Below, in pieces: positions 27,159-64,000 of a DNA stretch of 64,000 nucleotides (position 1 is its first letter; the number at the start of each line of letters is the position of its first letter). The DNA is taken from contig JAVJQW010000043.1 in the NCBI GenBank assembly GCA_040218735.1, positions 1 to 64,000 on the forward strand. Direction: 5' to 3'. The position numbers were made by a program, and so were the translations under genes. Source of the DNA: Deltaproteobacteria bacterium (GTDB taxonomy: Bacteria; Myxococcota; Kuafuiibacteriia; Kuafuiibacteriales; Kuafuiibacteriaceae). Under the pieces are notes generated by a model, which was not told the origin of the DNA, ran no database searches, and saw only the letters and a list, made by a program, of their open reading frames with translations.

Positions 27159-28364
27159 ATGGCCGCCAAGAAGTCGAAGTCCAAGAAGAAGACCGCCGCG
27201 AAGAAGGCGACGAAGAAGAAGACCGCGAAGAAGGCCGTGACGAAGAAGAAGGCCGCCGCGAAGAAGACCGCGAGCAAGAAGAAGGCTGCGGCGAAGAAGA
27301 CCGCGAGCAAGAAGAAGAGCGCGGCGAAGAAGACCGCGAGCAAGAAGAAGGCTGCGGCGAAGAAGACCGCGAGCAAGAAGAAGAGCGCGGCGAAGAAGAC
27401 CGCGAGCAAGAAGAAGAGCGCGGCGAAGCGGACGTCGGCGAAGAAGAAGACCGCCAAGAAGGTCGCCGCGAAGAAGACGGCGAAGAAGAAGACCGCCAAG
27501 AAGGTTGCGGCGAAGAAGAAGACCGCTGCGAAGAAGGTCGCGAAGAAGAAGACGACCAAGAAGGCGGTCGCGAAGAAGACCACCAAGAAGGCTGCGGCGA
27601 AGAAGACCACCAAGAAGGCGGCCGCGAAGAAGACCACCAAGAAGGCGGCCGCGAAGAAGACCACCAAGACGGCTGCGGCGAAGAAGACCACCAAGAAGGC
27701 GGCCGCGAAGACGACCACCAAGAAGGCGGTCGCCAAGAAGTCCACCAAGAAGGCGGTCGCGAAGAAGACCGCCAAGAAGGCGCGCGCGAAGAAGGCGGCA
27801 CCCGCCGTCGAGGCCGCGCCCGCCGAGACGCAGGTCGAGGCCGCGCCCGCGGTCGAGGCGGCGCCGAAGAAGAAGCGCGCCGCGAAGAAGAAGGCGCCGA
27901 AGAAGAAGGCTGCGGCCAAGAAGGCGGCAGCGCCCGCGACGGACAACGGCGCGGCGAAGCCTCTGTTCCCCGAGCCGAAGGACGTCCGGATCCTCGTCGT
28001 CGACGACGAGCCCGAAGTGCTCGACCTCCTCGTGCCGTTCCTTCAGTCGAAGGGGTACACGGTCACGGAGGCGCAGGACGGCGACCAGGCCCTCGAGCGC
28101 ATCCTCACCGAGCACCCGAACATCGTCGTCCTCGACGTGATGATGCCCGGCCTCTCCGGCTGGGAGATCTCGCGGTACGTGCGCGAGCGGAAAGAGCTCG
28201 ACCAGGTGCGCATCATCATGGCCACCGGGATCGGGCAGGAGACCAACGCCGCGACGAGCCCGCTGTACGGCGCCGACGCGTACCTCGACAAACCGTTCCG
28301 CCTCGACAAGCTCGAGATGATGGTCGCGGACGTGATCAAGCGCATCGAGGCCGGCGAGTACTGA
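27159..28364 (+). CDS. Histone H1-like Lys/Ala repeat region fused to a C-terminal receiver domain
   Basis: AGGAGG RBS; ~260 aa KKTAAKK repeats; ILVVDDE, LDVMMP, DKPF. Confidence 0.9.
   Translation: MAAKKSKSKKKTAAKKATKKKTAKKAVTKKKAAAKKTASKKKAAAKKTASKKKSAAKKTASKKKAAAKKTASKKKSAAKKTASKKKSAAKRTSAKKKTAKKVAAKKTAKKKTAKKVAAKKKTAAKKVAKKKTTKKAVAKKTTKKAAAKKTTKKAAAKKTTKKAAAKKTTKTAAAKKTTKKAAAKTTTKKAVAKKSTKKAVAKKTAKKARAKKAAPAVEAAPAETQVEAAPAVEAAPKKKRAAKKKAPKKKAAAKKAAAPATDNGAAKPLFPEPKDVRILVVDDEPEVLDLLVPFLQSKGYTVTEAQDGDQALERILTEHPNIVVLDVMMPGLSGWEISRYVRERKELDQVRIIMATGIGQETNAATSPLYGADAYLDKPFRLDKLEMMVADVIKRIEAGEY
27250..27780 (+). repeat. Imperfect 33-bp (KKTASKKK[AS]AA) and 27-bp (KKTTKKAAA) coding tandem repeats
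   Basis: Repeated aagaagaccgcgagcaagaagaag and aagaagaccaccaagaaggc units. Confidence 0.9.
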
Positions 28365-34863: not shown

Positions 34864-35878
34864 GTGGACCAGCGAAAGGACAACTTCGACGTCCTCGTCG
34901 TGGACGACGACGCCGTCACGCGGGCTCAGCTCCGCTTCCTCCTCATCCGCAACGGCTACGAAGTCACGGTGGCTTCGTCCGGTGAAGAAGGATGGGAGAA
35001 GCTGCAGCAGCGCCACTACCCGATCGTCATCACGGACTGGTCGATGCCGGGCATGAACGGCCCGGACCTCTGCAAGCTCGTTCGCGAGAACCTCGACGAC
35101 GAATACCTCTACATGATCCTGCTGACCGGCATGACCGAGAAGCAGCAGGTCGCGGTCGGTCTCGAGGCGGGCGCGGACGACTACATCACGAAGCCGTTCG
35201 ATTCGGGTGAGCTCCTTGCGCGCCTGCGCGTCGGGCGTCGCATCCTCACGCTTCAGCGTTCGATGCGCGAGACGCAAGCCAAGTTGCACGAGATGGCGCA
35301 CCAGGACGGCCTCACGAAGGTGATGAACCGACGCGCGATCGACGAGCAGCTCAACGAAGCCGTCGCGCGACTCGCACGTGCGACGCACCCGTCCACGGTC
35401 GCGTTGCTCGACATCGACTACTTCAAGAAGGTCAACGACACCTACGGCCACCAGGCGGGCGACGCGGTGCTGCAAGAGGTCGCCGGACGCATCAAGTCCA
35501 TCCTCCGCGGCTCCGACAAGATCGGACGCTACGGCGGTGAAGGAGTTCATCGCGGTCCTCGAGGGGGCGCCGGTCCACGACGCTCAGGAGGTCGCCGAGC
35601 GCATCCGCATGGCGGTCCAGGAGCTCCCTGTCGAGCACGGCGGCCAGGAGATCACCGTGACGATCAGCATCGGGCTCTGCGAAGCGCCCGCGGGCTACGT
35701 CGGTCCTGCGGCGCCGATCGTGGAGAAGGCCGACGAGGCGCTCTACGAGGCGAAGCGCGGCGGACGCAACCAGGTGGTGATCGCGGGGGCCCCTCGCGAG
35801 CCTGCGGAGACCGCCGACCCGGTGCACCTCATCACCTCCGCGACGAAGAAGACCGCTACCGCGGATCTCGCGAGCTGA
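34864..35878 (+). pseudogene. REC-GGDEF diguanylate cyclase with a +1 frameshift inside GGEEF (pseudogene or sequencing error)
   Basis: DGLT..NRR, DIDYFKKVNDTYGH..GD, RGSD I-site; GGC GGT GAA G|GAG TTC: removing one G at ~35542 restores GGEEF and joins the 35378-35878 frame (VTISIG, ADEALYEAKRGGRN). Confidence 0.88.
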
Positions 35879-37124
35879 GTCGATCCGCGACGGACTTGGC
35901 GACCTGCGCGCTCGGCGTGAGCGGGTGGTTGAGCGCCGCGAGGTAGACGTCCTGCCACGTGCCGCTGAGCGCGGCCCGCACCGTGAGCTCCTCGTACGCC
36001 TTCACGTGTTGGATCAGGCCCCGGATCTCGGCGGGCAGCGGTGCCTGCGGGAGCGGCGTCGCGCCGTTCGCGCGGACGTTGCAGGGGACCTCGACGCAGG
36101 CGCCCGCGGGGAGCTCGCGCACGGTGTCGCCGTTTTGGGTGTCGACGATCAGTCGCGCCGGTTCGTCGAGCGTGATCGCTCGGATAATCTCGAGCGCGGC
36201 GTGTGAGTAGAACGCGCCGCCTCGTTGGGAGAGGAGCTCCGGGCGTTCGTCGTTCTGCGGGTCTGCGTAGTACGCGAGGAGCTCGTCTTCGATCGCCATG
36301 ACCTGCTGCGCGCGGAGCTGCTCCGCGGCGCGCTGCTCGGCGACGGTGTCCGGGTGCAAGTAGTAGTAGCGGAGGTAGTCGGACGGGATCATCCCGAGCG
36401 CGCGGAGCAGCTCGGGGGGGAAGTCGAGGTCGGGGAGGTTCGCCGGTTTGTGTCCGCTGTCGAGGAGCTTGGCGACGTCTTCGAGGAGGTCGCCGAGGCG
36501 CTCTTCGCCGTTCACGCGGACGCCGCGCACGAACGACAGGTGGTTCAGCCCGACGGAGTCGATCTCGACTTCGGCGGGGGAGACGCCGAGGTGCGCGGCG
36601 ATCTCCATGCGCTGCGACAGCGGGATGTTGCAGAGGCCGATGGTCGTGATGTCGGCGTGTTGGAGCAGCGCCTCGGTGACGATCGAGACGGGATTCGTGA
36701 AGTTGATGAGCGTGGCGTTCGGCGCGACGCGCTGGGTGCGGCGGGCGATGTCGAGGAGCACGGGCACGGTGCGGAGCGCTTTGCTGAACCCACCGACGCC
36801 GGTGGTCTCTTGCCCGATCACGCCGTGGTCGAGGCCGAGGCGCTCGTCTTCGAGGCGCGCGGCTTGGCCGCCGACGCGGATCTGCACGACGACGAAGTCG
36901 GCGCCGTCGACGGCCGCTTCGAGGGTGGTGGTGGTGGTGAGCTGCGTACGTTCGGTCTGGCGCGCGACCATGCGCCGGCAGAAGTCACCGACGACGGCGA
37001 GGCGCGGCTCGTCGATGTCGTAGAGGGTGACGGCGTCGAGCGCGAGCGCTTCGGCGCCCTCGGCGAGTCCGTGGAGCAGCTCGGGGGCGTAGGTCGAGCC
37101 TCCTCCGACGACGGCGATCTTCAT
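35856..37124 (-). CDS. Glycoside hydrolase family 4 (6-phospho-beta-glucosidase-like)
   Basis: KIAVVGGGSTY, QIRVGG, GQETTGVGG, NFTNP, GLCN, GLNH. Confidence 0.93.
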   Translation of the reverse strand: MKIAVVGGGSTYAPELLHGLAEGAEALALDAVTLYDIDEPRLAVVGDFCRRMVARQTERTQLTTTTTLEAAVDGADFVVVQIRVGGQAARLEDERLGLDHGVIGQETTGVGGFSKALRTVPVLLDIARRTQRVAPNATLINFTNPVSIVTEALLQHADITTIGLCNIPLSQRMEIAAHLGVSPAEVEIDSVGLNHLSFVRGVRVNGEERLGDLLEDVAKLLDSGHKPANLPDLDFPPELLRALGMIPSDYLRYYYLHPDTVAEQRAAEQLRAQQVMAIEDELLAYYADPQNDERPELLSQRGGAFYSHAALEIIRAITLDEPARLIVDTQNGDTVRELPAGACVEVPCNVRANGATPLPQAPLPAEIRGLIQHVKAYEELTVRAALSGTWQDVYLAALNHPLTPSAQVAKSVADRLSSRDPR

Positions 37125-37198
37125 GGCGTCACCGCATAACAGGGGGGTGGGGCGACAGGCCATGGACTTGCCGGGCGATTGAAGCGAAGAACGGGGCC

Positions 37199-38518
37199 GT
37201 GGGGTCGCTCTCGACGGGCGCCGTGTTGCGGTACGCGGTCGGTGGGGTAGGGCAGAGCGTCCTGCCGCTGCTGGTCGGGACGTGGCTCATCGCGTTCTAC
37301 ACGGAGCAAGAGCATGCGTACCTGCTGTCGGCCGGGGTGCTCGGCACGGTGGTGATGGTCGAGCGCATCTTCGGGGCGATCCTGGAGCCGCTGATCGGGT
37401 ACGCGAGTGATCGTACGGCGTCGCGGTTCGGGCGGCGCCGGCCGTGGATCGCGGTGGGGCTGCCGGTGTTGGTGGTCGCGTATTTCATGTTGTGGTCGCC
37501 GCCCGCGGCGGACGGTCTGAACGCGACGTCGACGATCGTGTGGGTCGCGGCGTGTTTCCTCTTCTACAACGCGGCCTACACGGCGGTGTTCGCGCCGTAC
37601 AACGCGTTGCTGCCGGAGCTGCACCGCGCGACGAAGGAGCGGCTGCGGCTGTCTTCGTGGATGGGGATCTTCGAGGTCCTCGGTCAGATCGCGGTGTCGG
37701 TCGGGGGGGCGGCGCTGATCGGCTTGGGGGCGGTCGCGTGGTGGGGGCTGTCGTTCTCTTCCGGCTTCGCGGTGCTGGCGGCGGTCGCGGTGGCGGTGAC
37801 GTTGGTGACGATGTTGCCGGTGGTGCTGTTCACGCGCGAGGTCTCCGCGGAGCCGGCGGCGGCGGAGCTGGGGCTGGTAGCGGCGCTGACGGCGTCCTTC
37901 GCGAACCGGCACTTCGTTCGCTACGCGGTGGGGCTGTTGGGTTTTCGGATCGCGACGAACCTGGTCCTCGCGGGCATCCCGTTCGTGGGGGTGAAGCTGA
38001 TGGGTTTGACGTCGGCCGAGACGAGCTACGTGCCCGCGGTGATCATCGTGGTGGCCGTGTTGGCGTTCCCGGTGGTGCAGCGGCTGGCGAACCGGCACGG
38101 CAAGGCGCGGGTGTTCCGGTGGGGTGGCGTCGGGTTCGTGGGGTTGCTGCCGCTGATGGGTCTGGTGGACCGGCTGGTGCTACCGCCGCTCGCGGTGGGC
38201 GGGGTGTTGTTCGCGTTGAGTGGGTTCTCGGTGGCGACGCTGCTGGTGCTGCCCCGCGCGTTGCTCGCGGACATCGTCGACCACGACGAGACGCGTACGG
38301 GCCTGCGCCGCGAGGCGATCTACACGGGGATGTCGGGCATCTTCGAGAAGCTGGGCATGGCGCTCTCCGCGGGCATCGCGGGGCTGATGCTGGAGCTGTT
38401 CGGCCAGACGTCGGGGAACCTGCTCGGCGTCCGCCTCCTGGGCGTGGCGGGCAGCGTGGTGCTGGCGTTGTCCCTCGCCGTGTTCCGCCGCTACGATCTG
38501 GCGCCCTCCGAGGCCTGA
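37199..38518 (+). CDS. MFS transporter, glycoside-pentoside-hexuronide (MelB-like) family
   Basis: SDRTASRFGRRRPWI, PYNALLPEL, LLADIVDHDE..TG.RREAIY; 12 TM. Confidence 0.9.
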   Translation: MGSLSTGAVLRYAVGGVGQSVLPLLVGTWLIAFYTEQEHAYLLSAGVLGTVVMVERIFGAILEPLIGYASDRTASRFGRRRPWIAVGLPVLVVAYFMLWSPPAADGLNATSTIVWVAACFLFYNAAYTAVFAPYNALLPELHRATKERLRLSSWMGIFEVLGQIAVSVGGAALIGLGAVAWWGLSFSSGFAVLAAVAVAVTLVTMLPVVLFTREVSAEPAAAELGLVAALTASFANRHFVRYAVGLLGFRIATNLVLAGIPFVGVKLMGLTSAETSYVPAVIIVVAVLAFPVVQRLANRHGKARVFRWGGVGFVGLLPLMGLVDRLVLPPLAVGGVLFALSGFSVATLLVLPRALLADIVDHDETRTGLRREAIYTGMSGIFEKLGMALSAGIAGLMLELFGQTSGNLLGVRLLGVAGSVVLALSLAVFRRYDLAPSEA

Positions 38519-38664
38519 ATCGCGCATTTTGCGGCGATCCGGGGTCTCACGTATTCTCCGGGTGGCGGGGCGCCGATGGGGGGAGAAATCGCACGCGCGG
38601 TGTCAGGAGGCGGGGGAGGGCGACGTAGTCCCATCGGGGACTGGTGCATCTTCTCCCGACCACG

Positions 38665-41355
38665 ATGACCACCGCGAGCGACGCCCGCGGCGGGGTGCTG
38701 GCGCTCGGCGGCGTGGCCTTCATGCTCATGGCGGTCGCCGCCGCGTACCTGTGGCACGATCGCGGCGAGCCCGAGACGGCGGTCGCCGCCGCGGCGCCCG
38801 AGAAGCCGCTGAAGGTCTACTTCGGCGGCTGCCACGAGGTCCACGAGGGCCCGGTGTGCATGCTCAGCGGCACCGCGACGATCACGCTGTGGATGGAGGA
38901 CCCGGGGTACGAGCCCGTGGTGCTGGTGGATGGGCAAAAGGCTGTGACACGGGGTGCCCCGATCGACGGAGGTGTTCGCGTGCGAGTCGCCGTTTCATCC
39001 TCAGCCCGGCGTCTGACCATCGAACCCGATCGGTGGAACCTTCCCATTGAAAGCGCGCGGCATTTCCCAGCTGTCGACCGAATCCAAGCCGAGCGTATCG
39101 CACGGCCGGCCCACGCGCTCGCACAGGCTGTCCGCGCTAAGGATATCGCCCGTGATTCGCATGAACGCGCGGAACTGGCGTCGATGACCGCTCGGCTCCA
39201 CTACGACCTCAGGAATCGTGAGTGGAAAGACGACATCCTTCAATCCATCGAGCTACATCGCGTCAACGGATGTCTCACTGGAATGGCAAGAGACCTCGCG
39301 TTCGCTAGTCATCGCCTTCGCGATAATGGAGATATCGCGGGATCCCGTGATTCCCTCCGTCTGCTCGACGACGTTGCACGGAAGGCGCCGGAGTACAAAC
39401 TGGCGCATGCGTACTTCGACGCAATGCTCAAGAACCAGACTGGTGACACAAGAGCTGCTCTGGATGCACTCGACCACCTCAATCTGTGGTCCTACCGCCT
39501 TGCTGACCAAACATACCACGAGGCGTCAATATACCTAACCCTATTACTAATGTCCTTTCTTTCGCGTAGTTCGGAGACGCAACTGCTCCTCGAAAGACTC
39601 TCCGCGCAGGTGGCGAACACGCGAGAGCCCTGCGCAAAGGCTCGACTGCTAAATAACTTGGCGTGGTTCGGACGCGGTGTGGATGTCGATCGGAGCGTGC
39701 GTGCGGCGATGGAATCCGCACAAATCTACAGTGCTTCGTGCCCAAACGCCGAAGGCGATGTCCTCCTCCGGCTAACACTCGGGCGCCTCTACCTTCAGAA
39801 GGGTGATGCCGAATCGGTGCAGTCTACTCTGGCCTCGTTGGCGCGTTACTCACGGACCGAAATAAGCGCCCGTAATCAGATCGAGATTGATGACCTACGG
39901 GCGCACCTGGCTGCGCTCAATGGCGACGGAAACAGGGCTCTTCGGCTATTCGACTCAGTACGGCGTCGGACTGGGATTCACTATGAGGCCAAGCTCCATT
40001 GGAGCGCACTAGTTGGTATCGCAGCGGCGTACCTGCGTGACGGTCAAACGAGCCTTGCGGTCGAGACTCTACAGGAGGCAGAACGACTTGTGGATCTTCT
40101 TGTCCTTTCGATCCCACTCGGCGAAGGGAGGACTTCTTTCACAGACGAAATGGGTCGCTCATCAGAGATGCTGGTCGAGGTCCACCTCGACGACGGCGAT
40201 CTAGACGCAGCTATGAGAACCGCTGCAGCTAGTATCCGAAGAGCATCAAGCGCTCTTGCTCTGGCCGCGCGAGTGTCAGCGCTGCCAGCTGACATACGGG
40301 GCAGATTCCGAGATCGACTCGAATCCTACCGTGCGGATCGCCAGCAACTAGCGTCGATTGTTCGTGATGCCTGGAGACTGCCGACGACGCAGCGTCGGCG
40401 AATGGAACACCGCCGCCTGCGACTTGAAGCAAAGTTGACTCGGCATCTTGACGCAATGGTGTCCATGGCTGAGCTTGACTGGAGACAGGACGAACGGCCC
40501 CTTGAAACTACAAGTGGAGAACTCGTTCTCTATCCGACGGCCGATGGCTTTGTAGCGCTACTTCGCCTCTTCGGCGGCCTCGAGTGGACGAAGATATCCG
40601 GTGATCTGGAGACGAACCTGAGAGATTGGCTAGCGCTAAGTCTGAATCTCCGGGGCGGTGAGTTGCATCGACTTTTCGTACTTTCTCACCCAAAGCTGTT
40701 ACAGATACCAGTAGACCGGCTAGTCAGTCAGTTGTCGCCGTCTCCTGTCGTTACTGCCTACTCCGCCGGACTGTTGCAAGCACATCGGCCGAAGAGGCCA
40801 AAGCGAGCTCTTGTTGTCGGTGATCCGGACGGCACGCTGCCGCAATCGCGGTCTGAGATTGAAGTCGTGCGTCGACAATTGACTGCGAAGCGTTGGATGG
40901 TAGACGTGGTAGTAGGTGACGACGCCCGAAGGGAGACGATTCTCGCGAGCCTATCAGATGTGCGTTACGGCCTATTTCACTTCGCAGGACATTCAGCTTC
41001 ACGCGGGGTGTCGGGTTGGGAGAGCTATCTTAGGACGGCCGATTCCGACTCCATCACGGTTGCCGACATCTTTGCGCTCGAGTCGGTTCCCCCGGTTGTT
41101 GTGCTTTCCTCATGCGAAGGTGGCGGCGATGGGTTCTCGCCCGTTGGAATTGCTCAGGCGATGATTGCGCGCGGGGCAGTCGTGGTCATAGCAGCAACGC
41201 GTGATGTTGAGGACGGGTACGCAAGGAAGCTCGCCACCGAGCTGTATCGGCCGGAGGGTGAACTCCGGGTTGATGTCCGATTGGCTGAGCTAGGTTGGAA
41301 TGCACAGAATGTAGAAAACGCTCGTGCCGCTGGGTTTCGAACCTTTGTGAGGTAA
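38665..41355 (+). CDS. N-terminally anchored TPR-repeat + CHAT (caspase-like, clan CD) protease
   Basis: TM segment GVLALGGVAFMLMAVAAAYLW; helical repeats (KARLLNNLAW); LVVGDPDGTLP..EI; FHFAGHS (His) and VVLSSCEG (Cys). Confidence 0.9.
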   Translation: MTTASDARGGVLALGGVAFMLMAVAAAYLWHDRGEPETAVAAAAPEKPLKVYFGGCHEVHEGPVCMLSGTATITLWMEDPGYEPVVLVDGQKAVTRGAPIDGGVRVRVAVSSSARRLTIEPDRWNLPIESARHFPAVDRIQAERIARPAHALAQAVRAKDIARDSHERAELASMTARLHYDLRNREWKDDILQSIELHRVNGCLTGMARDLAFASHRLRDNGDIAGSRDSLRLLDDVARKAPEYKLAHAYFDAMLKNQTGDTRAALDALDHLNLWSYRLADQTYHEASIYLTLLLMSFLSRSSETQLLLERLSAQVANTREPCAKARLLNNLAWFGRGVDVDRSVRAAMESAQIYSASCPNAEGDVLLRLTLGRLYLQKGDAESVQSTLASLARYSRTEISARNQIEIDDLRAHLAALNGDGNRALRLFDSVRRRTGIHYEAKLHWSALVGIAAAYLRDGQTSLAVETLQEAERLVDLLVLSIPLGEGRTSFTDEMGRSSEMLVEVHLDDGDLDAAMRTAAASIRRASSALALAARVSALPADIRGRFRDRLESYRADRQQLASIVRDAWRLPTTQRRRMEHRRLRLEAKLTRHLDAMVSMAELDWRQDERPLETTSGELVLYPTADGFVALLRLFGGLEWTKISGDLETNLRDWLALSLNLRGGELHRLFVLSHPKLLQIPVDRLVSQLSPSPVVTAYSAGLLQAHRPKRPKRALVVGDPDGTLPQSRSEIEVVRRQLTAKRWMVDVVVGDDARRETILASLSDVRYGLFHFAGHSASRGVSGWESYLRTADSDSITVADIFALESVPPVVVLSSCEGGGDGFSPVGIAQAMIARGAVVVIAATRDVEDGYARKLATELYRPEGELRVDVRLAELGWNAQNVENARAAGFRTFVR

Positions 41356-41362
41356 ATTTGAG

Positions 41363-41824
41363 ATGAGATACAAACTTCTGTTCTTGACGATTCTGACGGC
41401 TGCAAATGCTACTGCTTGCATTCCTGTCCATCGCTGCGACTGCTGTGAGAAAGTCGTTGTGAAATGCGCTGACGGGCGCGGGCAGTCTGGCGATGGTGGG
41501 CTCGGTCCCGTTGGGCCTGACGCTCCCTGCCCACCATGCACCCTCTACATCTCGGACACCCAGCTCCAGGGCGTCCTGGATCCCAAGTACTCGAAGCACG
41601 AGTACCCGTTCACCACCGCCACCCTCACGGTGTTCAACGCCGCGGCGAATCCGATCGGGCAGGCGGTCCTTCAACCTGATCACCAGTACGGGGGGACGAA
41701 CATCGACCAGAAGGTCGTGTTCGATACGCCGCTCGACACGAACGACATCAAGTCGGCGTCGATTCGGTGGATCGACAAGAACGGGCAGGCCCTCGAGCAG
41801 CCGAACATCATGCTCAAGCCCTGA
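41363..41824 (+). CDS. Small exported protein / putative lipoprotein with Cys-rich N-terminal segment (CHAT partner 1)
   Basis: MRYK + hydrophobic stretch + ATAC; CDCC..C; CPPCT..L.G.LDP.Y domain shared with the next gene; 7 bp after the CHAT stop. Confidence 0.8.
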   Translation: MRYKLLFLTILTAANATACIPVHRCDCCEKVVVKCADGRGQSGDGGLGPVGPDAPCPPCTLYISDTQLQGVLDPKYSKHEYPFTTATLTVFNAAANPIGQAVLQPDHQYGGTNIDQKVVFDTPLDTNDIKSASIRWIDKNGQALEQPNIMLKP

Positions 41825-41854
41825 GTCGCACCTGCCCTCTCGGGCAGTGTTGCG

Positions 41855-41865
41855 CCCCCCCCCCC
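41855..41865. repeat. C11 homopolymer in the intergenic region
   Basis: tgcg ccccccccccc gcgg, preceded by hairpin ctgccc-tctc-gggcag (41832-41847). Confidence 0.85.
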
Positions 41866-41884
41866 GCGGCCTAAGCTCGCCGCC

Positions 41885-42274
41885 ATGAACACGTCCAAGA
41901 TGCTCATCATGGCGAGCGCGCTCGCGGCCGCCTTCGTCTGGGTCGCGCTACCCGCCGCACTGCTGAGCGCGAACCCGAACGTGTCGTGTCCACCCTGCAC
42001 CTACGACATCTCGCGCCAAGAGCTCACCGGCACCCTCGACCCCGGCTACACCGCGCACCCCTTCCCCTTCACCGGCATGACGCTCACGCTCGTGGACGGC
42101 TCCGACAACGTGCTCGACACGATCGCGGACCTCCCGCCGAGCTTTCAGTACGGTAGCACCGTGCTCGATCAGGTCATCGACACCGACGTCACCTCCGGCG
42201 TCGCCAAGGCTCAGCTCGAGTGGATGGACGACGACAACAACCCGGTCTCCCAGACGATCACCGTCGTCCCCTGA
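41885..42274 (+). CDS. Small exported protein, paralog of the upstream gene (CHAT partner 2)
   Basis: Signal peptide; SCPPCTYDISRQELTGTLDPGYTAHPFPFT..QYGSTVLDQ..W. Confidence 0.82.
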   Translation: MNTSKMLIMASALAAAFVWVALPAALLSANPNVSCPPCTYDISRQELTGTLDPGYTAHPFPFTGMTLTLVDGSDNVLDTIADLPPSFQYGSTVLDQVIDTDVTSGVAKAQLEWMDDDNNPVSQTITVVP

Positions 42275-42287
42275 GATCCAGGCCCCC

Positions 42288-44093
42288 TCAGAACGCCGCG
42301 TCGATGCGGGCGTCCAGCACGTCCAGCGGCACGCTAGCGCCCGTGAGGACCACGTTGTGGAAGCGCTTCAGGTCGAAGGCGCTCCCCGCGCGGGCCTCGG
42401 CGCGTGCGCGGGCTGCGAGGATGCGGTTCATGCCCGTCGCGTACGCCGTCGCTTGGCCGGGCCAGCTGATGTAACGCGCCGTCTGGCCGTCGGCGGCGCC
42501 CTGCGGGAAGCCGACGTTCGTCTGCATGAACGTGCTCGCCCGCGCGAAGTCCCAACCCATCACGTGCAGCCCCGTGTCCATCACCAACCGCGCCGCGCGG
42601 AACGCCTCGTACTGGAGCCGGCCCAAGTCACCGTAGGCGTCCCCCGCGTACCAACCCAGATCCGCCGCCAAGCGCTCCGCGTAGAGCGCCCAACCCTCCG
42701 TGTACGCCGTGTGCCGAGTGATTCGTCGGAAGAACGGGAGATCCAGGTCTTGCATGATCCCAATCTGCAAGTGATGCCCCGGCAGCGCCTCGTGATACGC
42801 CAGCGTCTTCATCCCGAAGCGCGCCTCCCCGGACCCACCCACCGTAGCGTAGAACGCACCCGGGCGCGCCCCATCCAACGACGGCCCGATGTAGAACCCA
42901 CCGCTCGGCGCGCCGATCACCACCACGTCCGTCGAAGGCAACACATCGAACGCCTCCGCCAATCGCCCCTCCGCGTCCTCGATGATCCGCGTGTACTCAT
43001 CCAGAATCTCATCACCCGGAACCACCCCGCCGTCCGTCACCAGCTGCCCGTACAGCTCCTGCAACGGCGCATCGCGCCGGTAACCCAACCCCTCGAACGC
43101 ATCCCGCATCTGCACGTGAATCCGCTCCAGGTCCGCCAACCCCTGCGCGTGGATCTGCTCCGCCGTGCTCGAAGTCGTCGTGTGGTGCCGCAACGCCGCC
43201 GCGTAGTACGCCGCCCCGTTCGGCAACGCCCCGACGCCGACCTCCGCCGGCGCCATGCGCGCCACGCGCGCCAGCGCCGCATCGAGCCGCTCGTACGCCG
43301 GAATCACGTCCGTCTCGATCGCAAACTGCGCCGAGACCAGCAGCTCCGCGCGCACCGACGACGCCACGTCGATGCCCCCGATCTTCCGCGACAACGCCGC
43401 ATAATACGGCGTACTCAAATAACCCTGTAACCCCGCGTTCTGCACGCGGCCACGAATCCAACCCACCATCACGGCCGGCGGCGCGTATCCACGTGAAGCA
43501 CGCTCCTCCACCACCGCCGCGACCTGATCGAGCTTGTCATCCACCCGCCACAACCGAGCGATGTAAGCCTCTGCATCCGCCATCGTCTCGAGCGGATGAA
43601 TCTCCGTGAAGAACAGCTCCGTCTGCGCCGGCTCACCCGCGATGATCGGCGACATCAGATACGCGTGATCGCGCCACGCGTACGCCGAGAGCTGATCCTC
43701 CAGATACCAAAGGTAGACGTCGTAAGTGAGCTGCTGCTCCGCCGTCAGCGCGCCGCGGTCCACCGCCATCACCGCGTCGCGAATCACCTCCACCACCGCG
43801 TTGGTCTCGCCCGCGAACGCGTCCGAACGATCGTCCAACCGCACCGCGTCCTGCGGATACTTCGACTCCAACTGCAACTCGAACAAAGACTCCGGGCTCC
43901 GCCGCAACAAGTGCTCGAACGACAGCTCCACCAGCGCGTCGAACGCCAACCCCGACAGCGACGACGAAACCTCCGCCGCCGACGGCAACACGTGCGCCGG
44001 CGGCTCCGCGGGCCGCTCACGCGCAGGCCCGTCCGTCTTGTTGTCCCCGCTACACGCCGCGAGCAGCCCGAGGAACCAAAGAGCGCGCTTCAT
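42288..44093 (-). CDS. DUF885 family lipoprotein
   Basis: Lipobox LAAC; LAYHEALPGHHLQ, EGWALYAE, RAARLVMDTGLH, RYISWPGQATAY, FDLKRFH. Confidence 0.92.
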   Translation of the reverse strand: MKRALWFLGLLAACSGDNKTDGPARERPAEPPAHVLPSAAEVSSSLSGLAFDALVELSFEHLLRRSPESLFELQLESKYPQDAVRLDDRSDAFAGETNAVVEVIRDAVMAVDRGALTAEQQLTYDVYLWYLEDQLSAYAWRDHAYLMSPIIAGEPAQTELFFTEIHPLETMADAEAYIARLWRVDDKLDQVAAVVEERASRGYAPPAVMVGWIRGRVQNAGLQGYLSTPYYAALSRKIGGIDVASSVRAELLVSAQFAIETDVIPAYERLDAALARVARMAPAEVGVGALPNGAAYYAAALRHHTTTSSTAEQIHAQGLADLERIHVQMRDAFEGLGYRRDAPLQELYGQLVTDGGVVPGDEILDEYTRIIEDAEGRLAEAFDVLPSTDVVVIGAPSGGFYIGPSLDGARPGAFYATVGGSGEARFGMKTLAYHEALPGHHLQIGIMQDLDLPFFRRITRHTAYTEGWALYAERLAADLGWYAGDAYGDLGRLQYEAFRAARLVMDTGLHVMGWDFARASTFMQTNVGFPQGAADGQTARYISWPGQATAYATGMNRILAARARAEARAGSAFDLKRFHNVVLTGASVPLDVLDARIDAAF

Positions 44094-45265
44094 CCTGCGG
44101 ATGGTAACAAACGCACGAAGGCCGCGACGAAGAACCCGTCCGTGTCGTGCTCGTCCGGCCGCAGCGTCTCGCGCGGCGACGCACCCGGCCACACCGGCAC
44201 CGCTTCCACATCCGCCGACGCCTCGAACGCCGAAGCAACCTCCGCGTTCTCGGCCGACAGCAACGAACACGTCGCGTACACGATGCGCCCGCCCGGGCGA
44301 ACCAGCGAAAACGCCCGCCGCAGTAAATCCAGCTGCAGCGACGCCAACGACGCCACCTCCGCCGCCGACACCCGCCACTTCCGGTCCGGCCCGCGCCGCC
44401 ACGTCCCGGTCGCGGAACACGGCGCATCCACCAACACCCGATCCGCTCCACTCGACGGAGCCGACCCAGTCAGATCCACCACCCGCACCGACGGCGAATC
44501 GACACGCCCCAACCGAACCTCCAGATCGCGAAGCCGCGCGCCATCGACGTCACACGCCCACAGCGTCCCGGTGTCCTCCATCGCCGCCGCGAGCGCCAAA
44601 GTCTTACCGCCGGCGCCCGCGCACAGATCGATCACCGCCTCACCGGGCCGCGCGTCCACCGCCACCGCGACCATCTGGCTCGCCTCGTCCTGAACCTCGA
44701 ACGCCCCGTCGCGCCACGCCGCAGACCCGCGAATGTCCGGCCGCCCCGACAACCGCAGCGCACACGGCGCGAGCTGCCTCGGCGCGACGTCCATTCCCTC
44801 CGCGCGCAACCGCAAAGCCAACGTGTCCCGATCTCCGCGCGCACGAATCGCGATCGGCCCCGGCGTGTTCATCACCTCCGCGACCGCGAACGCCGAGTCA
44901 CCGAACTGCTGATACCAGTCCGCCGCGACGAAGTCCGGCAGCGAACCCCACACGCGAAGCCGCTCGACGACACCGGCGGGCCAATCTCCCCGTGCGACCG
45001 GGCCCGAACTCGGGCTCGGCGGCGGCAGCAAGTCATCTCGCCGATCGTACAACTCATGCCAACTCAGCTCCGGAAAGCGCGCCGCCAGATATTCCAACCG
45101 CACGCGATGACAACGCACCCCGTGCACCAGCTCCGCCACGCGCCGGCGTCCGTCGTTGTCCAGCTCCGGATGCGCGCGGAGCGTTCGCTTCAATACACGG
45201 TCCGCCGGCGCCCCCGCCTCCACGCGTTCGAGTGCGGAGGCCGCGATTACCTCCGCCAGCGCCAT
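44090..45265 (-). CDS. RsmB/NOP family RNA m5C methyltransferase
   Basis: FEVQDEASQ, DLCAGAGGKT, LVDAPCSATG, VYATCS, TDGFF. Confidence 0.92.
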   Translation of the reverse strand: MALAEVIAASALERVEAGAPADRVLKRTLRAHPELDNDGRRRVAELVHGVRCHRVRLEYLAARFPELSWHELYDRRDDLLPPPSPSSGPVARGDWPAGVVERLRVWGSLPDFVAADWYQQFGDSAFAVAEVMNTPGPIAIRARGDRDTLALRLRAEGMDVAPRQLAPCALRLSGRPDIRGSAAWRDGAFEVQDEASQMVAVAVDARPGEAVIDLCAGAGGKTLALAAAMEDTGTLWACDVDGARLRDLEVRLGRVDSPSVRVVDLTGSAPSSGADRVLVDAPCSATGTWRRGPDRKWRVSAAEVASLASLQLDLLRRAFSLVRPGGRIVYATCSLLSAENAEVASAFEASADVEAVPVWPGASPRETLRPDEHDTDGFFVAAFVRLLPSAG

Positions 45266-62069: not shown

Positions 62070-64000
62070 GTGCTCGCCTGGACTTCACCTTCGCTGGGCT
62101 CCCGCGTGCCGATCGCGGCGTTGGCCGGGCTGGTCGCGGCGGTGGTTGGACTCGACGGTCCACCGCACACCTCGGCGCGTGCGCAGCTGCTGGGGTTCGT
62201 TGCGGTCGAGCGCGACGCGGATGGCTTGGTCTACGTCTTCGACGCCGAGCACACGCCGTTCGTCGTCGCGGACGCGGCGCCCGAACGTGTCGAGCTCGCG
62301 GCGGACGTGCTCCCGCATCCAAGCGATTGTTCTGCGCGCTGTCGCATCGACGTCACGTTCCCGAGTCGCGCCGAGCTGCAGACGTTCGTGGTCGACGACC
62401 ACATCTGGCGCGTTCGCGTCGTGCCCTCGCGGTGGCCATCGCTCGACGCTGCACGCGAGGCGGCGGACGCTGACCGTTGGGGCGACGCGTTCGCCGCGCT
62501 CGACGCCATCCGCCCCAAGGATCGGCTGGAGCGGATCGCCGTCGCGACGGCCGCCGCCTCGTTCGCGCGTCGACGCGGAGACACCGCCGGATACGTCGAA
62601 GCCGTCGAACGGTGGGGCCGCCTCGCCCGGCGCCTCGACGTCCCGAGCGAGGTGAGCCGCTCGCTCCGCACGCAGGCCTTCTTGGCGTTCTACCGCCGCG
62701 ACTTCGACGCGGTGTTTCCGCTCTTGGATCGCGCCGAGGTCATCGACGCCGACATCGCCAATACTTCGGGCCTCGTTCGCGCTGCCGCCTATCGCAGCCT
62801 GACGCTGCGAGAGCTCGGTCGTTTCCGCGACGGGATGCAAGTAGCCGAGGAAGGCCGACGCCTCGCGCTCGACGTCGGGCTCACGGAAGACGCGGGGACG
62901 CTCGGCGCCGCGATCGCGCGCATCGCGCTGCACTCGGGCGACTACACACGTGCGCTGAAGGAGCTCGACCTCGCCGCTGATCGCGTCGCGCCGCACGAGC
63001 GCGCAGGGGTGCTCGTCGAACGCGGCTGGACGCTCGCCTCTGCGATGGTCGCGGGCGCCATCGAGGTCGACTGGTCGAAGCCGCGCGCCGACTTCGAACG
63101 TGCGTTGCGCCTCGCGAGACGCGACGGCTTGCCGGTCCCGGAAGCCAACGCGCTCGTCGATCTCGCGTGGCTCGATCACCTCGAGGGTCGCGATGCCGCC
63201 GCGGCGCGCCTGCAGGGCCTCGATCTCGAAGCGCACCCCGTCGCGCAGGTCTTCGTGCAGATCGTGGTCGCCACGCGTGCGCGGGAGGAGGGGCGGTTAG
63301 CCGATGCCCGGGCGGGGTTCGAGCGGGCGCTCGCGATGGCGCACGCGGGCAGCGACGAGACCTCCAACCTGGCCTGGCGCGCGACGTACGGTCTCGCGAA
63401 GACCGCGGCGGCGGCGGGCGAAGACGCTCGCGCCGCACAGCTGTTCGATCGTGCGCTCGACGCGCTCGATCGCATCGCGCGCCACGTCGAGATCCATCGT
63501 GCGCGGGCGTTGTTCGCGCAGGATCGCGCGGGGCTCGTCGACGATGCCATCCGCGCTCACCTGTCGCGGGGTGACGTCGCTCGGGCGATGGTCGTGGCGG
63601 ATCGCGCGCGGCTCCTCGTGCTCGAACCGCTCGCATACCGCTCGGCGCTGGAGGGGCTGGACGAATCGCAGCGGTCGGCCTGGCGGCGCGCGGTCTTCGA
63701 CTACGAACGGACGCGCGGCATCTACGAACGGCGCGCGGGCGGGGCGGAGCTGATCCCCGCCTCCCGGCTCGACGCCTATCACCGCGAGACCGAGCGCCAG
63801 CGCGAAGAGCTCCAGGTGCGATTCGACGCGGCGACGGCGATCCTCGACGCGAGCGGCGTCGTCGCGGACTCGGTTCGACTCGGAACGGACGACATCACCG
63901 CCCGCGTCGGACCGGGCCAAGGGCTGCTCTACTTTCACGCCGCCGCCGACGGGACGTACGTCGCGTTCTTCGTGACCGAGGAGCGCATCGAATACGTGGT
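62070..64000 (+). CDS. TPR-repeat protein homologous to the TPR-CHAT at 38665; 3' partial, CHAT domain predicted beyond the window
   Basis: Manual translation is open from GTG 62070 to the window end; hydrophobic N-terminus; WRATYGLA..RALFAQDR..HLSRGDVARAM aligns with WSALVGIA..RTSFTDEM..HLDDGDLDAAM. Confidence 0.78.
   Translation, partial: MLAWTSPSLGSRVPIAALAGLVAAVVGLDGPPHTSARAQLLGFVAVERDADGLVYVFDAEHTPFVVADAAPERVELAADVLPHPSDCSARCRIDVTFPSRAELQTFVVDDHIWRVRVVPSRWPSLDAAREAADADRWGDAFAALDAIRPKDRLERIAVATAAASFARRRGDTAGYVEAVERWGRLARRLDVPSEVSRSLRTQAFLAFYRRDFDAVFPLLDRAEVIDADIANTSGLVRAAAYRSLTLRELGRFRDGMQVAEEGRRLALDVGLTEDAGTLGAAIARIALHSGDYTRALKELDLAADRVAPHERAGVLVERGWTLASAMVAGAIEVDWSKPRADFERALRLARRDGLPVPEANALVDLAWLDHLEGRDAAAARLQGLDLEAHPVAQVFVQIVVATRAREEGRLADARAGFERALAMAHAGSDETSNLAWRATYGLAKTAAAAGEDARAAQLFDRALDALDRIARHVEIHRARALFAQDRAGLVDDAIRAHLSRGDVARAMVVADRARLLVLEPLAYRSALEGLDESQRSAWRRAVFDYERTRGIYERRAGGAELIPASRLDAYHRETERQREELQVRFDAATAILDASGVVADSVRLGTDDITARVGPGQGLLYFHAAADGTYVAFFVTEERIEYV

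Follow-up and report, generated by a model that had tools for sequence, protein, structure and literature searches.

The 64,000-nucleotide stretch analyzed here (the window) is the first 64 kb of contig JAVJQW010000043.1 (C17) of a deltaproteobacterial genome of 11.6 Mb with 68.8% GC. It contains three plus-strand genes, namely a gene for a tetratricopeptide repeat (TPR)-CHAT protease with a transmembrane (TM) anchor and the genes of two small proteins (partner 1 and partner 2), which are bordered on the left by a GH4 and an MFS_2 gene and on the right by a DUF885 gene (Table 1). The segment from 38934 to ~41539, which begins inside the CHAT gene and ends inside partner 1, is one of at least four alleles of a strain-polymorphic cassette that share the same junctions and near-identical flanks, in a high-GC species that is probably myxobacterial. 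Taken as a whole, our data are best explained by an old strain-polymorphic protease/ligand cassette whose low GC content at third codon positions (GC3) arose in situ, an explanation to which we assign a probability of about 0.6.

By word-index search, 24 listed runs belonging to 10 studies contain the stretch, and contigs carrying the cassette flanks come from runs with the labels sponge metagenome, aquaculture metagenome and 'organism A'. A 33,998-bp contig of run X2 resembles the window over 36000-38934 with 33 differences (98.9%). Then 2569 unlike letters replace 2566 letters of the window, and likeness returns at 41501, with 48 differences and 4 gaps over 41501-42075, 33 nt skipped, and 54 differences over 42109-44500 (97.7%). 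In run X7, a 33,485-bp contig is like the window over 36000-38933 (98 differences), carries 2580 unlike letters in place of 2573, and resumes likeness over 41507-44500 with 145 differences (~95%). Identities of the flanks in the two contigs were 96.7-98.9% on the left and 95-98% on the right. Their junctions agree within 1 nt on the left and within 6 nt on the right, and the replacements are near equal in length. The block is replaced, not deleted, in two other studies. In the right transition zone, DNA differences were found at 41533 and 41536. In the X2 contig divergence is raised directly to the right of the cassette (48 differences in 575 nt, 8.3%, versus 2.3% farther out), which hints at balancing selection.

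Junctions of this kind may also result from an assembly that joins reads of two organisms. The genome is distributed over 70 contigs with an estimated contamination of 4.65%, and run X1, which holds all sampled words, is labelled mixed-culture metagenome. However, a separately built Logan contig from X1 spans both junctions (36000-41865) with 0 differences, a second one covering 41855-44500. The exact partner-1 protein, which crosses the right junction, is also encoded on an 11,524,684-bp contig. Furthermore, likeness ends at these junctions (to within 1 nt left and 6 nt right) in contigs from two further studies, which carry in-frame alleles of their own. A chimeric assembly is therefore regarded as a negligible explanation. 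The first-pass annotation, made from the letters of this DNA, had suggested mapping reads across both junctions and looking for conserved flanks with a hypervariable middle; contigs that cross both junctions were obtained from X1, X2 and X7, and the pattern of flanks and middle was seen at the DNA level in these contigs and at the protein level in the alleles described below.

Searching 5.8 billion proteins with the CHAT body resulted in three relatives only, besides the window protein itself. Three more came from exhaustively searching 1.84 billion representatives, where all other matches had at most 32% identity. Among the four alleles P0001 (the window's own protease), P0007, P0008 and P0022, residues 27-97 of the anchor share 93-97% amino acid identity. 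The latter three lose likeness right after ...EPVVLVDG (residue 97), and the bodies are 35-47% identical. All protease alleles align end to end as TPR-CHAT. The mirror image is seen in partner 1, where the alleles P0002 (the window's own), P0015, P0016 and P0017 share 37-53% identity over residues 1-54 and 94-99% over residues 55-153, with the break at PCPPCT. The partner-1 alleles (4/4) retain Cys19, 25, 27, 28 and 35 as well as the HRCxCC motif. Since P0007 and P0015 are encoded on a 33,998-bp contig, equal in size to the X2 contig, the unlike letters of X2 presumably represent the P0007/P0015 allele.

His783 (HFAGHS) and Cys824 (LSSCEGG), called the catalytic dyad by motif position rather than by superposition, are invariant in 85/85 aligned family members and in all 7 near relatives. 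Given these kept residues, the alleles are, as far as sequence can tell, working alleles and not products of decay. Cys63 and Cys72 of the anchor are likewise invariant in 85/85 family members. Searches of genome contigs and metagenome contigs with the partner alignment produced pattern matches only and no relative, and no member of the partner family turned up in a search of 19 further genomes from the order.

Both junctions sit at the most conserved motifs, GGCHEVHxGPVC...TITLW..DPG...VDG on the left and PCPPCT on the right. In the structure model the left junction (residue 97/98) is located in the middle of the N-terminal beta-sandwich (58-137) and not at a domain border. The block seems to end where purifying selection keeps identity high enough for recombination. 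Inside the cassette the alleles would be too unlike for recombination, and whole cassettes would pass between strains by ordinary homologous recombination in the flanks. An exchange between in-gene anchors that takes the TPR-CHAT body together with the Cys-rich ~55 aa of the partner had been proposed in the first-pass annotation as the swap of a co-evolving lock-and-key pair. The exchange itself was recovered in our comparison. The lock-and-key part does not follow from it, because the variable parts are contiguous and lack internal homology for recombination, so that a joint swap does not itself prove co-adaptation.

Both open reading frames (ORFs) stay open across the left and right junctions, with 7 nt between the CHAT stop and the start of partner 1, and a Pfam scan of the neighboring genes (GH4, MFS_2, DUF885) found no mobile-element genes, in agreement with the earlier reading of the translations. 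No repeats were found at the cassette junctions, no invertase, reverse transcriptase or template repeats among the neighbors or at the junctions, and no silent copies in the 11.6-Mb genome, where anchor, cassette and right flank are each single-copy by blastn. Silent-cassette or programmed switching as in shufflons or diversity-generating retroelements was rejected on these grounds: single-copy parts, junctions without repeats and the lack of mobile genes leave programmed switching and site-specific insertion unsupported.

A sharp step in codon usage accompanies the polymorphism. GC3 is 92/96 in codons 1-96 of the CHAT gene and 464/807 in codons 97-903 (Fisher p = 2.6e-16), and in partner 1 it is 31/58 in codons 1-58 versus 87/95 in codons 59-153 (p = 8.8e-8). 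Maximum-likelihood change-points of GC3 were obtained at nt 38928-38931 and at nt 41539 (~41539), a few bases off the positions 38930 and 41535 at which the first-pass annotation had placed the junctions. Its hand counts of 47/60, 28/60 and 24/60 GC were all exact on recount, and the change is abrupt rather than gradual, third positions in the CHAT gene being nearly all G/C to codon 95 and alternating thereafter. Overall GC is 0.575 in 38934-41500 compared to 0.698 and 0.673 in the flanks. Genome-wide, 1-kb windows below 0.60 GC form 66 islands that account for 1.2% of the 11.6 Mb, and the cassette is the only stretch below 0.60 GC in the 64-kb window. Third-position use in the cassette is near even (A.19, C.28, G.29, T.24) and AGA, AGG, CTA and TTA are all used, whereas A and T make up.012 and.047 of the flank third positions. 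At first, second and third codon positions (GC1/GC2/GC3) the cassette has 0.69/0.48/0.575 versus genome medians of 0.70/0.50/0.886, which were derived from 5,588 ORFs of at least 300 codons passing a filter of our choice (GC3 > GC1 > GC2) that truncates the distribution; the first percentile of genome GC3 is 0.72.

This composition had been taken as foreign in the first-pass annotation. A recent import from a lower-GC foreign donor, patched in frame and still carrying the composition of the donor, would account for a GC3 of 0.575 against 0.89 genome-wide that is abrupt at both ends, and for GC1 and GC2 values somewhat below those of six CHAT paralogues of uniform composition. On the other hand, GC1 and GC2 equal the host medians. 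Judged by the usual relation between codon positions across genomes, GC1 and GC2 should be far lower in a genome whose GC3 is ~0.57. Exchange in frame at one and the same nucleotide in several strains requires flanking homology, hence the donors would have to carry the same locus. The only proteins above 32% identity in the 1.84 billion representatives are five, all with the same architecture and lineage-type anchors, that is, a handful from the same or sister lineages. Moreover, the GC3 step recurs at a second locus on contig C64 and in the sister species (see below). Because GC1 and GC2 are host-typical and only synonymous sites deviate, a foreign origin of the cassette is not favored, and we hold a recent import to be unlikely.

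Instead, the low GC3 would be a consequence of the polymorphism. Old alleles would be kept by balancing or frequency-dependent selection, which would arise from kin discrimination or phage pressure. The cassette would thereby escape the recombination-linked GC enrichment (biased gene conversion) that would hold GC3 near 0.89 in the rest of the genome and at 0.92-0.96 in the exchanging flanks, and its synonymous sites would drift to near-unbiased use. Across bacteria, recombining genes are GC-richer, and this has been attributed to biased gene conversion (PMC4450053). A non-recombining block beside flanks that recombine at each exchange would be expected to produce the GC3 picture described above. 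The GC3 values of the flanks (Table 1; partner-1 tail 0.92) are near the top of the genome, the 95th percentile of which is 0.94.

A comparable mosaic was detected at a locus unlinked to the cassette. At C64:172299-174827 (-), which corresponds to L008:1399-3927 (-), a CHAT paralogue of 842 aa, a predicted lipoprotein, has a GC3 of 0.96 for 171 codons and of 0.60 thereafter. Identity to the relatives P0019 and P0020 amounts to 92-95% over residues 1-150 and to 54-55% over 181-842, the break being located at ~150-180 and slightly different in two strains (~150 versus ~180). As judged from these alignments, GC3 step and between-strain identity break coincide at C64 too, less exactly than in the window. 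The C64 paralogue is flanked by a gene for a Cys-rich 190-aa lipoprotein and, downstream, by a sub-threshold ECF-sigma-like gene (ECF, extracytoplasmic function). Only 5 of 9,756 stop-to-stop ORFs of at least 400 codons passed our filter for a high-to-low GC3 step, which was chosen by us, includes GC1/GC2 bounds for the low side and truncates the distribution. The two strongest of these 5 are the window CHAT gene and the C64 CHAT paralogue. Other long ORFs with an in-frame GC3 step that passed our filter were C41:404748-407405 (-), C60:39084-42986 (+), C28:62451-65849 (-) and C59:101442-104657 (+), which may be further mosaic genes or ORF-calling artefacts.

In a sample of 20 genomes of the family and order, a CHAT orthologue was found only in the sister species represented by G001. 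It is located in the same place, after the MFS gene, and has 42% identity overall and 51% in the anchor, the MFS gene being 82% identical at the amino acid level to the syntenic G001 gene. GC3 of the G001 orthologue falls from ~0.95 to ~0.6 at codon ~335, leaving a low-GC3 3' part. The G001 genome is 75% complete, and the contig ends directly after the stop of the CHAT gene (L021:3900-6620), 9 nt past it; the next contig begins inside partner 2, the partner region itself being unassembled. The pair of the window genome and G001 allows no dating, since saturation of synonymous sites affects even the MFS gene (same-codon rate 0.70 at GC3 ~0.95).

Separate trees for anchor and cassette, as suggested in the first-pass annotation, came out different. 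The maximum-likelihood tree of the bodies, with four distant family members as root, unites P0008, P0001 and P0007 in a single clade (99/98). P0022 has a species-type anchor and joins the sister-species alleles P0009 and P0023 (94/94), the last of which may come from another species. When the four same-anchor alleles, a group defined by anchor identity before tree building, are constrained to one clade, the cost is 7.4 log-likelihood units (approximately unbiased test, p = 0.031). This sequence-based result provides modest evidence that the allele lineages predate or cross the species boundary. The grouping of P0022 with alleles of other species would also suit a foreign donor, as cassettes may cross species lines.

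The structure model of the protease (AlphaFold2, AF2; predicted local distance difference test score, pLDDT, 91.5) consists of a helix (16-39), the beta-sandwich (58-137), helical repeats (142-608) with ~23 helices in TPR-like arrangement, and the CHAT domain (624-903). The best hydropathy window is 18-36, and Pfam assigned CHAT (PF12770) to residues 660-869 with 66.3 bits against a gathering cut-off of 24. Top Foldseek matches were Csx29 (8eey_B, E 1.1e-12) and DdvA (1.1e-12), followed by separase (~2e-9), with TM-scores as low as 0.23-0.39, as expected of flexible superhelices. The model thus places the cassette protease in the separase/craspase/DdvA fold class of TPR-CHAT proteins, membrane-anchored and predicted to face the periplasm. 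Sequence searches of the PDB with P0001 and with a 4-row profile yielded nothing meaningful, and NCBIfam gave no match for the protease or the partners. With PADLOC, nothing beyond weak matches of BovA over part of the CHAT domain was obtained (best E 4.7e-5, 20.2 bits).

In the partner-1 model, which is of moderate confidence (pLDDT 69.5), a signal helix and a small hairpin rich in Cys are connected by a disordered linker to a beta-sandwich (60-152). The latter is, on the model, a generic beta-sandwich domain with weak Ig-like Foldseek matches only (best E 7e-3). A Protein Atlas search with partner 1 gave no usable match. Partner 2 is a paralogue of the C-terminal two-thirds of partner 1 (39% identity from CPPCT onward, E 3e-21). 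Prediction of a complex of CHAT residues 98-903 and partner-1 residues 20-153 scored 0.00 in both runs and bears neither way on an interaction.

In the explanation favored here, the protease body would form a cognate pair with the Cys-rich head of partner 1, both being variable. The head would serve as substrate or securin-like pseudo-substrate inhibitor of the body, and the invariant anchor, the invariant beta-sandwich and partner 2 would dock to invariant cell components. By analogy to DdvA, the protease would be a periplasmic sensor/protease, and the diversity of alleles may serve self/non-self discrimination or escape from phage interference. That protease and partner co-evolve as lock and key is an inference, as is the role of the pair in the cell.

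A different selective cause with the same locus structure would be an arms race in which TPR-CHAT alone diversifies, being targeted by or sensing proteins of phages or competitors, while the partner head hitch-hikes. Such a sensor would fit the DdvA-like architecture, and DdvA has been proposed to sense a phage-associated periplasmic protein (passages of PMC11506125). A block boundary at the first conserved motif on each side is what pure recombination mechanics predicts, and protease and partner identities do not co-vary across the 3 pairs. Hitch-hiking is less compatible with the partner heads, whose Cys framework and HRCxCC motif are kept in 4/4 cases while surface positions change, a pattern resembling selected diversification of a folded module. 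PADLOC's matches were weak, as described above, and the neighbors of the cassette include no defence genes. We consider the hitch-hiking scenario doubtful.

Polymorphic toxins with immunity proteins show a similar outline. Here the N-terminus would deliver or anchor, TPR-CHAT would be a proteolytic toxin for neighboring cells (e.g. via outer-membrane material), and partner 1 would confer immunity. Conserved N-terminus, variable C-terminal body and variable start of the next small gene correspond to this arrangement, the paralogues and the family consensus carry lipoprotein signals, and in myxobacteria lipoprotein toxins occur that are polymorphic and pass between kin (PMC5562445). In contrast to unrelated toxin tips, the alleles are all homologous full-length TPR-CHAT proteins. 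Variation is confined to a third of the partner, which is followed by a second, invariant paralogue, and the protease has a TM anchor and no lipobox. The frequent location of the CHAT family beside ECF sigma genes (4/16 paralogues within 3.5 kb) points to signaling. A toxin/immunity function is thus very unlikely.

This linkage emerged from the 16 CHAT matches of the genome, 4 of which have a Sigma70_r2 gene at most 3.5 kb upstream on the same strand (contigs C67, C50, C54 and C23); one further paralogue has such a gene at ~4.7 kb. These arrangements suggest split sigma/anti-sigma/lipoprotein-CHAT modules related to the fused DdvA type. The family consensus starts with a lipoprotein-type signal, and from its sequence features the CHAT family looks extracytoplasmic and signaling-linked. 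Family members P0048, P0049, P0078, P0136, P0142, P0151 and P0155 have ~1120-1200 aa, with an N-terminal extension of ~250-310 residues before the shared part of ~850 residues; they may be fused anti-sigma (DdvA-like) forms. A further CHAT-domain gene starts near the end of the window (63348-64000) and continues to C17:64628, with an open frame of 889 aa and a uniform GC3 of ~0.85.

Several points weigh against the favored explanation or narrow its basis. Four of the runs (X1, X2, X4 and X7) were compared as contigs, not reads. X1 may be the window's own source sample, and X4 contributed only short flank pieces, none of which reaches a junction. Only 3 matched protease/partner pairs are available, and their pairwise identities do not track each other. 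The reading of in situ GC3 decay rests on the window allele, the C64 paralogue and G001, and in the latter the GC3 step is at codon ~335, yet identity to P0023 drops near residue 135. The rejection of a single same-anchor clade has a p value of only 0.031 on a tree with long branches. The six uniform CHAT paralogues have GC1/GC2 of ~0.77/0.53, and the shift of the cassette relative to them is the one that a lower-GC donor would be expected to cause. Finally, with no ECF sigma gene nearby, a DdvA-like signaling output is not evident at the cassette locus.

The coordinates of the locus are compiled in Table 1. The CHAT gene likely starts at the ATG at 38665 and not at the GTG at 38644, since relatives start at MTTASD. 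The lipobox of partner 1 was read by eye. Partner 2 has a 33-nt length polymorphism (42076-42108) in X2 and X4, and compensating small indels occur around 41855-41964. Elsewhere in the window, 27160-27950 is a long Lys/Ala-rich repeat (AKKKTAAKK-like, AT skew 0.73) forming the N-terminal part of an ORF that appears to run on into a response-regulator-type segment, a domain recognized by eye.

Table 1. Genes and segments of the cassette locus in window coordinates.
Feature	Position	Strand	Remarks
GH4 (family 4 glycosyl hydrolase) gene, conserved left flank	35856..37163	-	Pfam Glyco_hydro_4 and Glyco_hydro_4C, E ~1e-50; covered by X2 and X7 contigs, 96.7-98.9%
MFS_2 transporter gene, conserved left flank	37199..38518	+	Pfam MFS_2, E 6e-58; GC3 0.945
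TPR-CHAT protease gene, TM-anchored, 903 codons	38644..41355	+	GTG 38644; Pfam CHAT
Left anchor in CHAT gene	38644..38933	+	Short cytoplasmic tail, TM helix, first beta-sandwich strands with C63/C72; GC3 0.96
Variable cassette proper	38934..41500	+	CHAT residues 98-903, 7-nt spacer, partner-1 residues 1 to ~46; GC 0.575, GC3 0.575
Right transition zone	41501..41539	+	Conserved GL.PV.P..PCPPC motif; A/T-ending codons persist in window allele
Partner 1, 153 aa, predicted lipoprotein	41363..41824	+	Signal peptide, Cys19, Cys-rich hairpin (C25, C27, C28, C35), CPPC, beta-sandwich
Partner 2, 129 aa, in conserved flank	41885..42274	+	Signal or TM segment, CPPC, beta-sandwich; GC3 0.93
DUF885 gene, conserved right flank	42288..44420	-	Pfam DUF885, E 3e-119

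If the favored explanation is true, the locus provides a natural allelic series for periplasmic DdvA-like TPR-CHAT proteases with a candidate cognate ligand next door, and thereby a handle on the signals that these proteases recognize. A Gram-negative, extracytoplasmic protease would join the few loci with a gene-cutting specificity block (agr, comQXP). Furthermore, the cassette would be a clean natural experiment on the causes of high GC in bacteria, since in one frame GC3 drops from 0.96 to 0.575 within a few codons of the end of homology. In a wider and more speculative version, which we put forward tentatively and would not bet on, marine myxobacteria-like bacteria keep ancient trans-species alleles comparable to those of the major histocompatibility complex at several extracytoplasmic TPR-CHAT loci. 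The alleles would be co-adapted self/non-self pairs (kin or phage), and the GC3 step would be the direct footprint of GC-biased gene conversion (flanks ~0.95, cassette ~0.57). No description of polymorphic CHAT cassettes was found in the literature searched.

Known systems resemble the cassette in different respects. DdvA of M. xanthus is a TM anti-sigma factor with a periplasmic TPR-CHAT part of ~900 residues, for which sensing of a protein signal in the periplasm and self-cleavage have been proposed (passages of PMC11506125). The window protease shares with it a single TM helix followed by a domain of ~860 residues, the fold class and the His-Cys dyad. DdvA occupied Foldseek ranks 2 and 3 (E 1.1e-12 and 1.8e-11) and exceeded the other top matches in identity (15%) and in alignment length. 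In contrast to the ~70-residue cytoplasmic zinc-binding anti-sigma domain that passages of PMC11506125 describe for DdvA, the part ahead of helix 16-39 has only ~15 residues (8 when counted from the likely ATG). The window protease also differs in having two small CPPC proteins downstream and no adjacent ECF sigma gene, the only PF04542 match on C17 being located at 153,007, ~110 kb off. Strain polymorphism of DdvA is not mentioned in the passages of PMC11506125 that deal with this protein. Csx29 (craspase) and separase with its securin share the TPR-CHAT fold and are restrained or aimed by a bound partner, which makes them a model for the proposed role of the partner-1 head; unlike the cassette protease, they are cytoplasmic and RNA-guided or cell-cycle regulated. 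Partner 1 showed no homology to Csx30 or securin, for which no targeted search was made.

A composition break at an in-frame junction is classic for Rhs elements. The modules of Rhs, contact-dependent inhibition (CDI) and SitA/SitI systems resemble the cassette in joining a conserved N-terminal part in frame to a variable C-terminal part, with a variable small gene downstream. The cassette differs from these polymorphic toxins in that its alleles are homologous over their full length and of one enzymatic fold, only the partner head varies, and no delivery system is linked. In comQXP of B. subtilis the junction lies inside comP, with lower GC. That locus likewise has discrete, highly divergent within-species allele clusters of a modifying enzyme and its partners, the enzymes being unrelated to ours, and its comQ clusters are only 65-70% identical at the nucleotide level (passages of PMC4408185).

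The agr hypervariable region of S. aureus starts within agrB, runs through agrD and extends into agrC, coupling the specificities of protease, substrate and receptor (passages of PMC12312760). Both agr and the cassette are contiguous hypervariable segments with both junctions in genes and discrete allele groups between conserved flanks, and by analogy the cassette, too, may couple a processing protease to the recognized part of its partner. The proteins are unrelated, agr being composed of a membrane peptidase, a peptide precursor and a histidine kinase with a quorum-sensing output, whereas neither kinase nor peptide precursor is found among the cassette neighbors; specificity was shown experimentally for agr and is proposed for the cassette. 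In its logic the cassette comes closest to the agr hypervariable region, and in structure its protease comes closest to Csx29 and DdvA.

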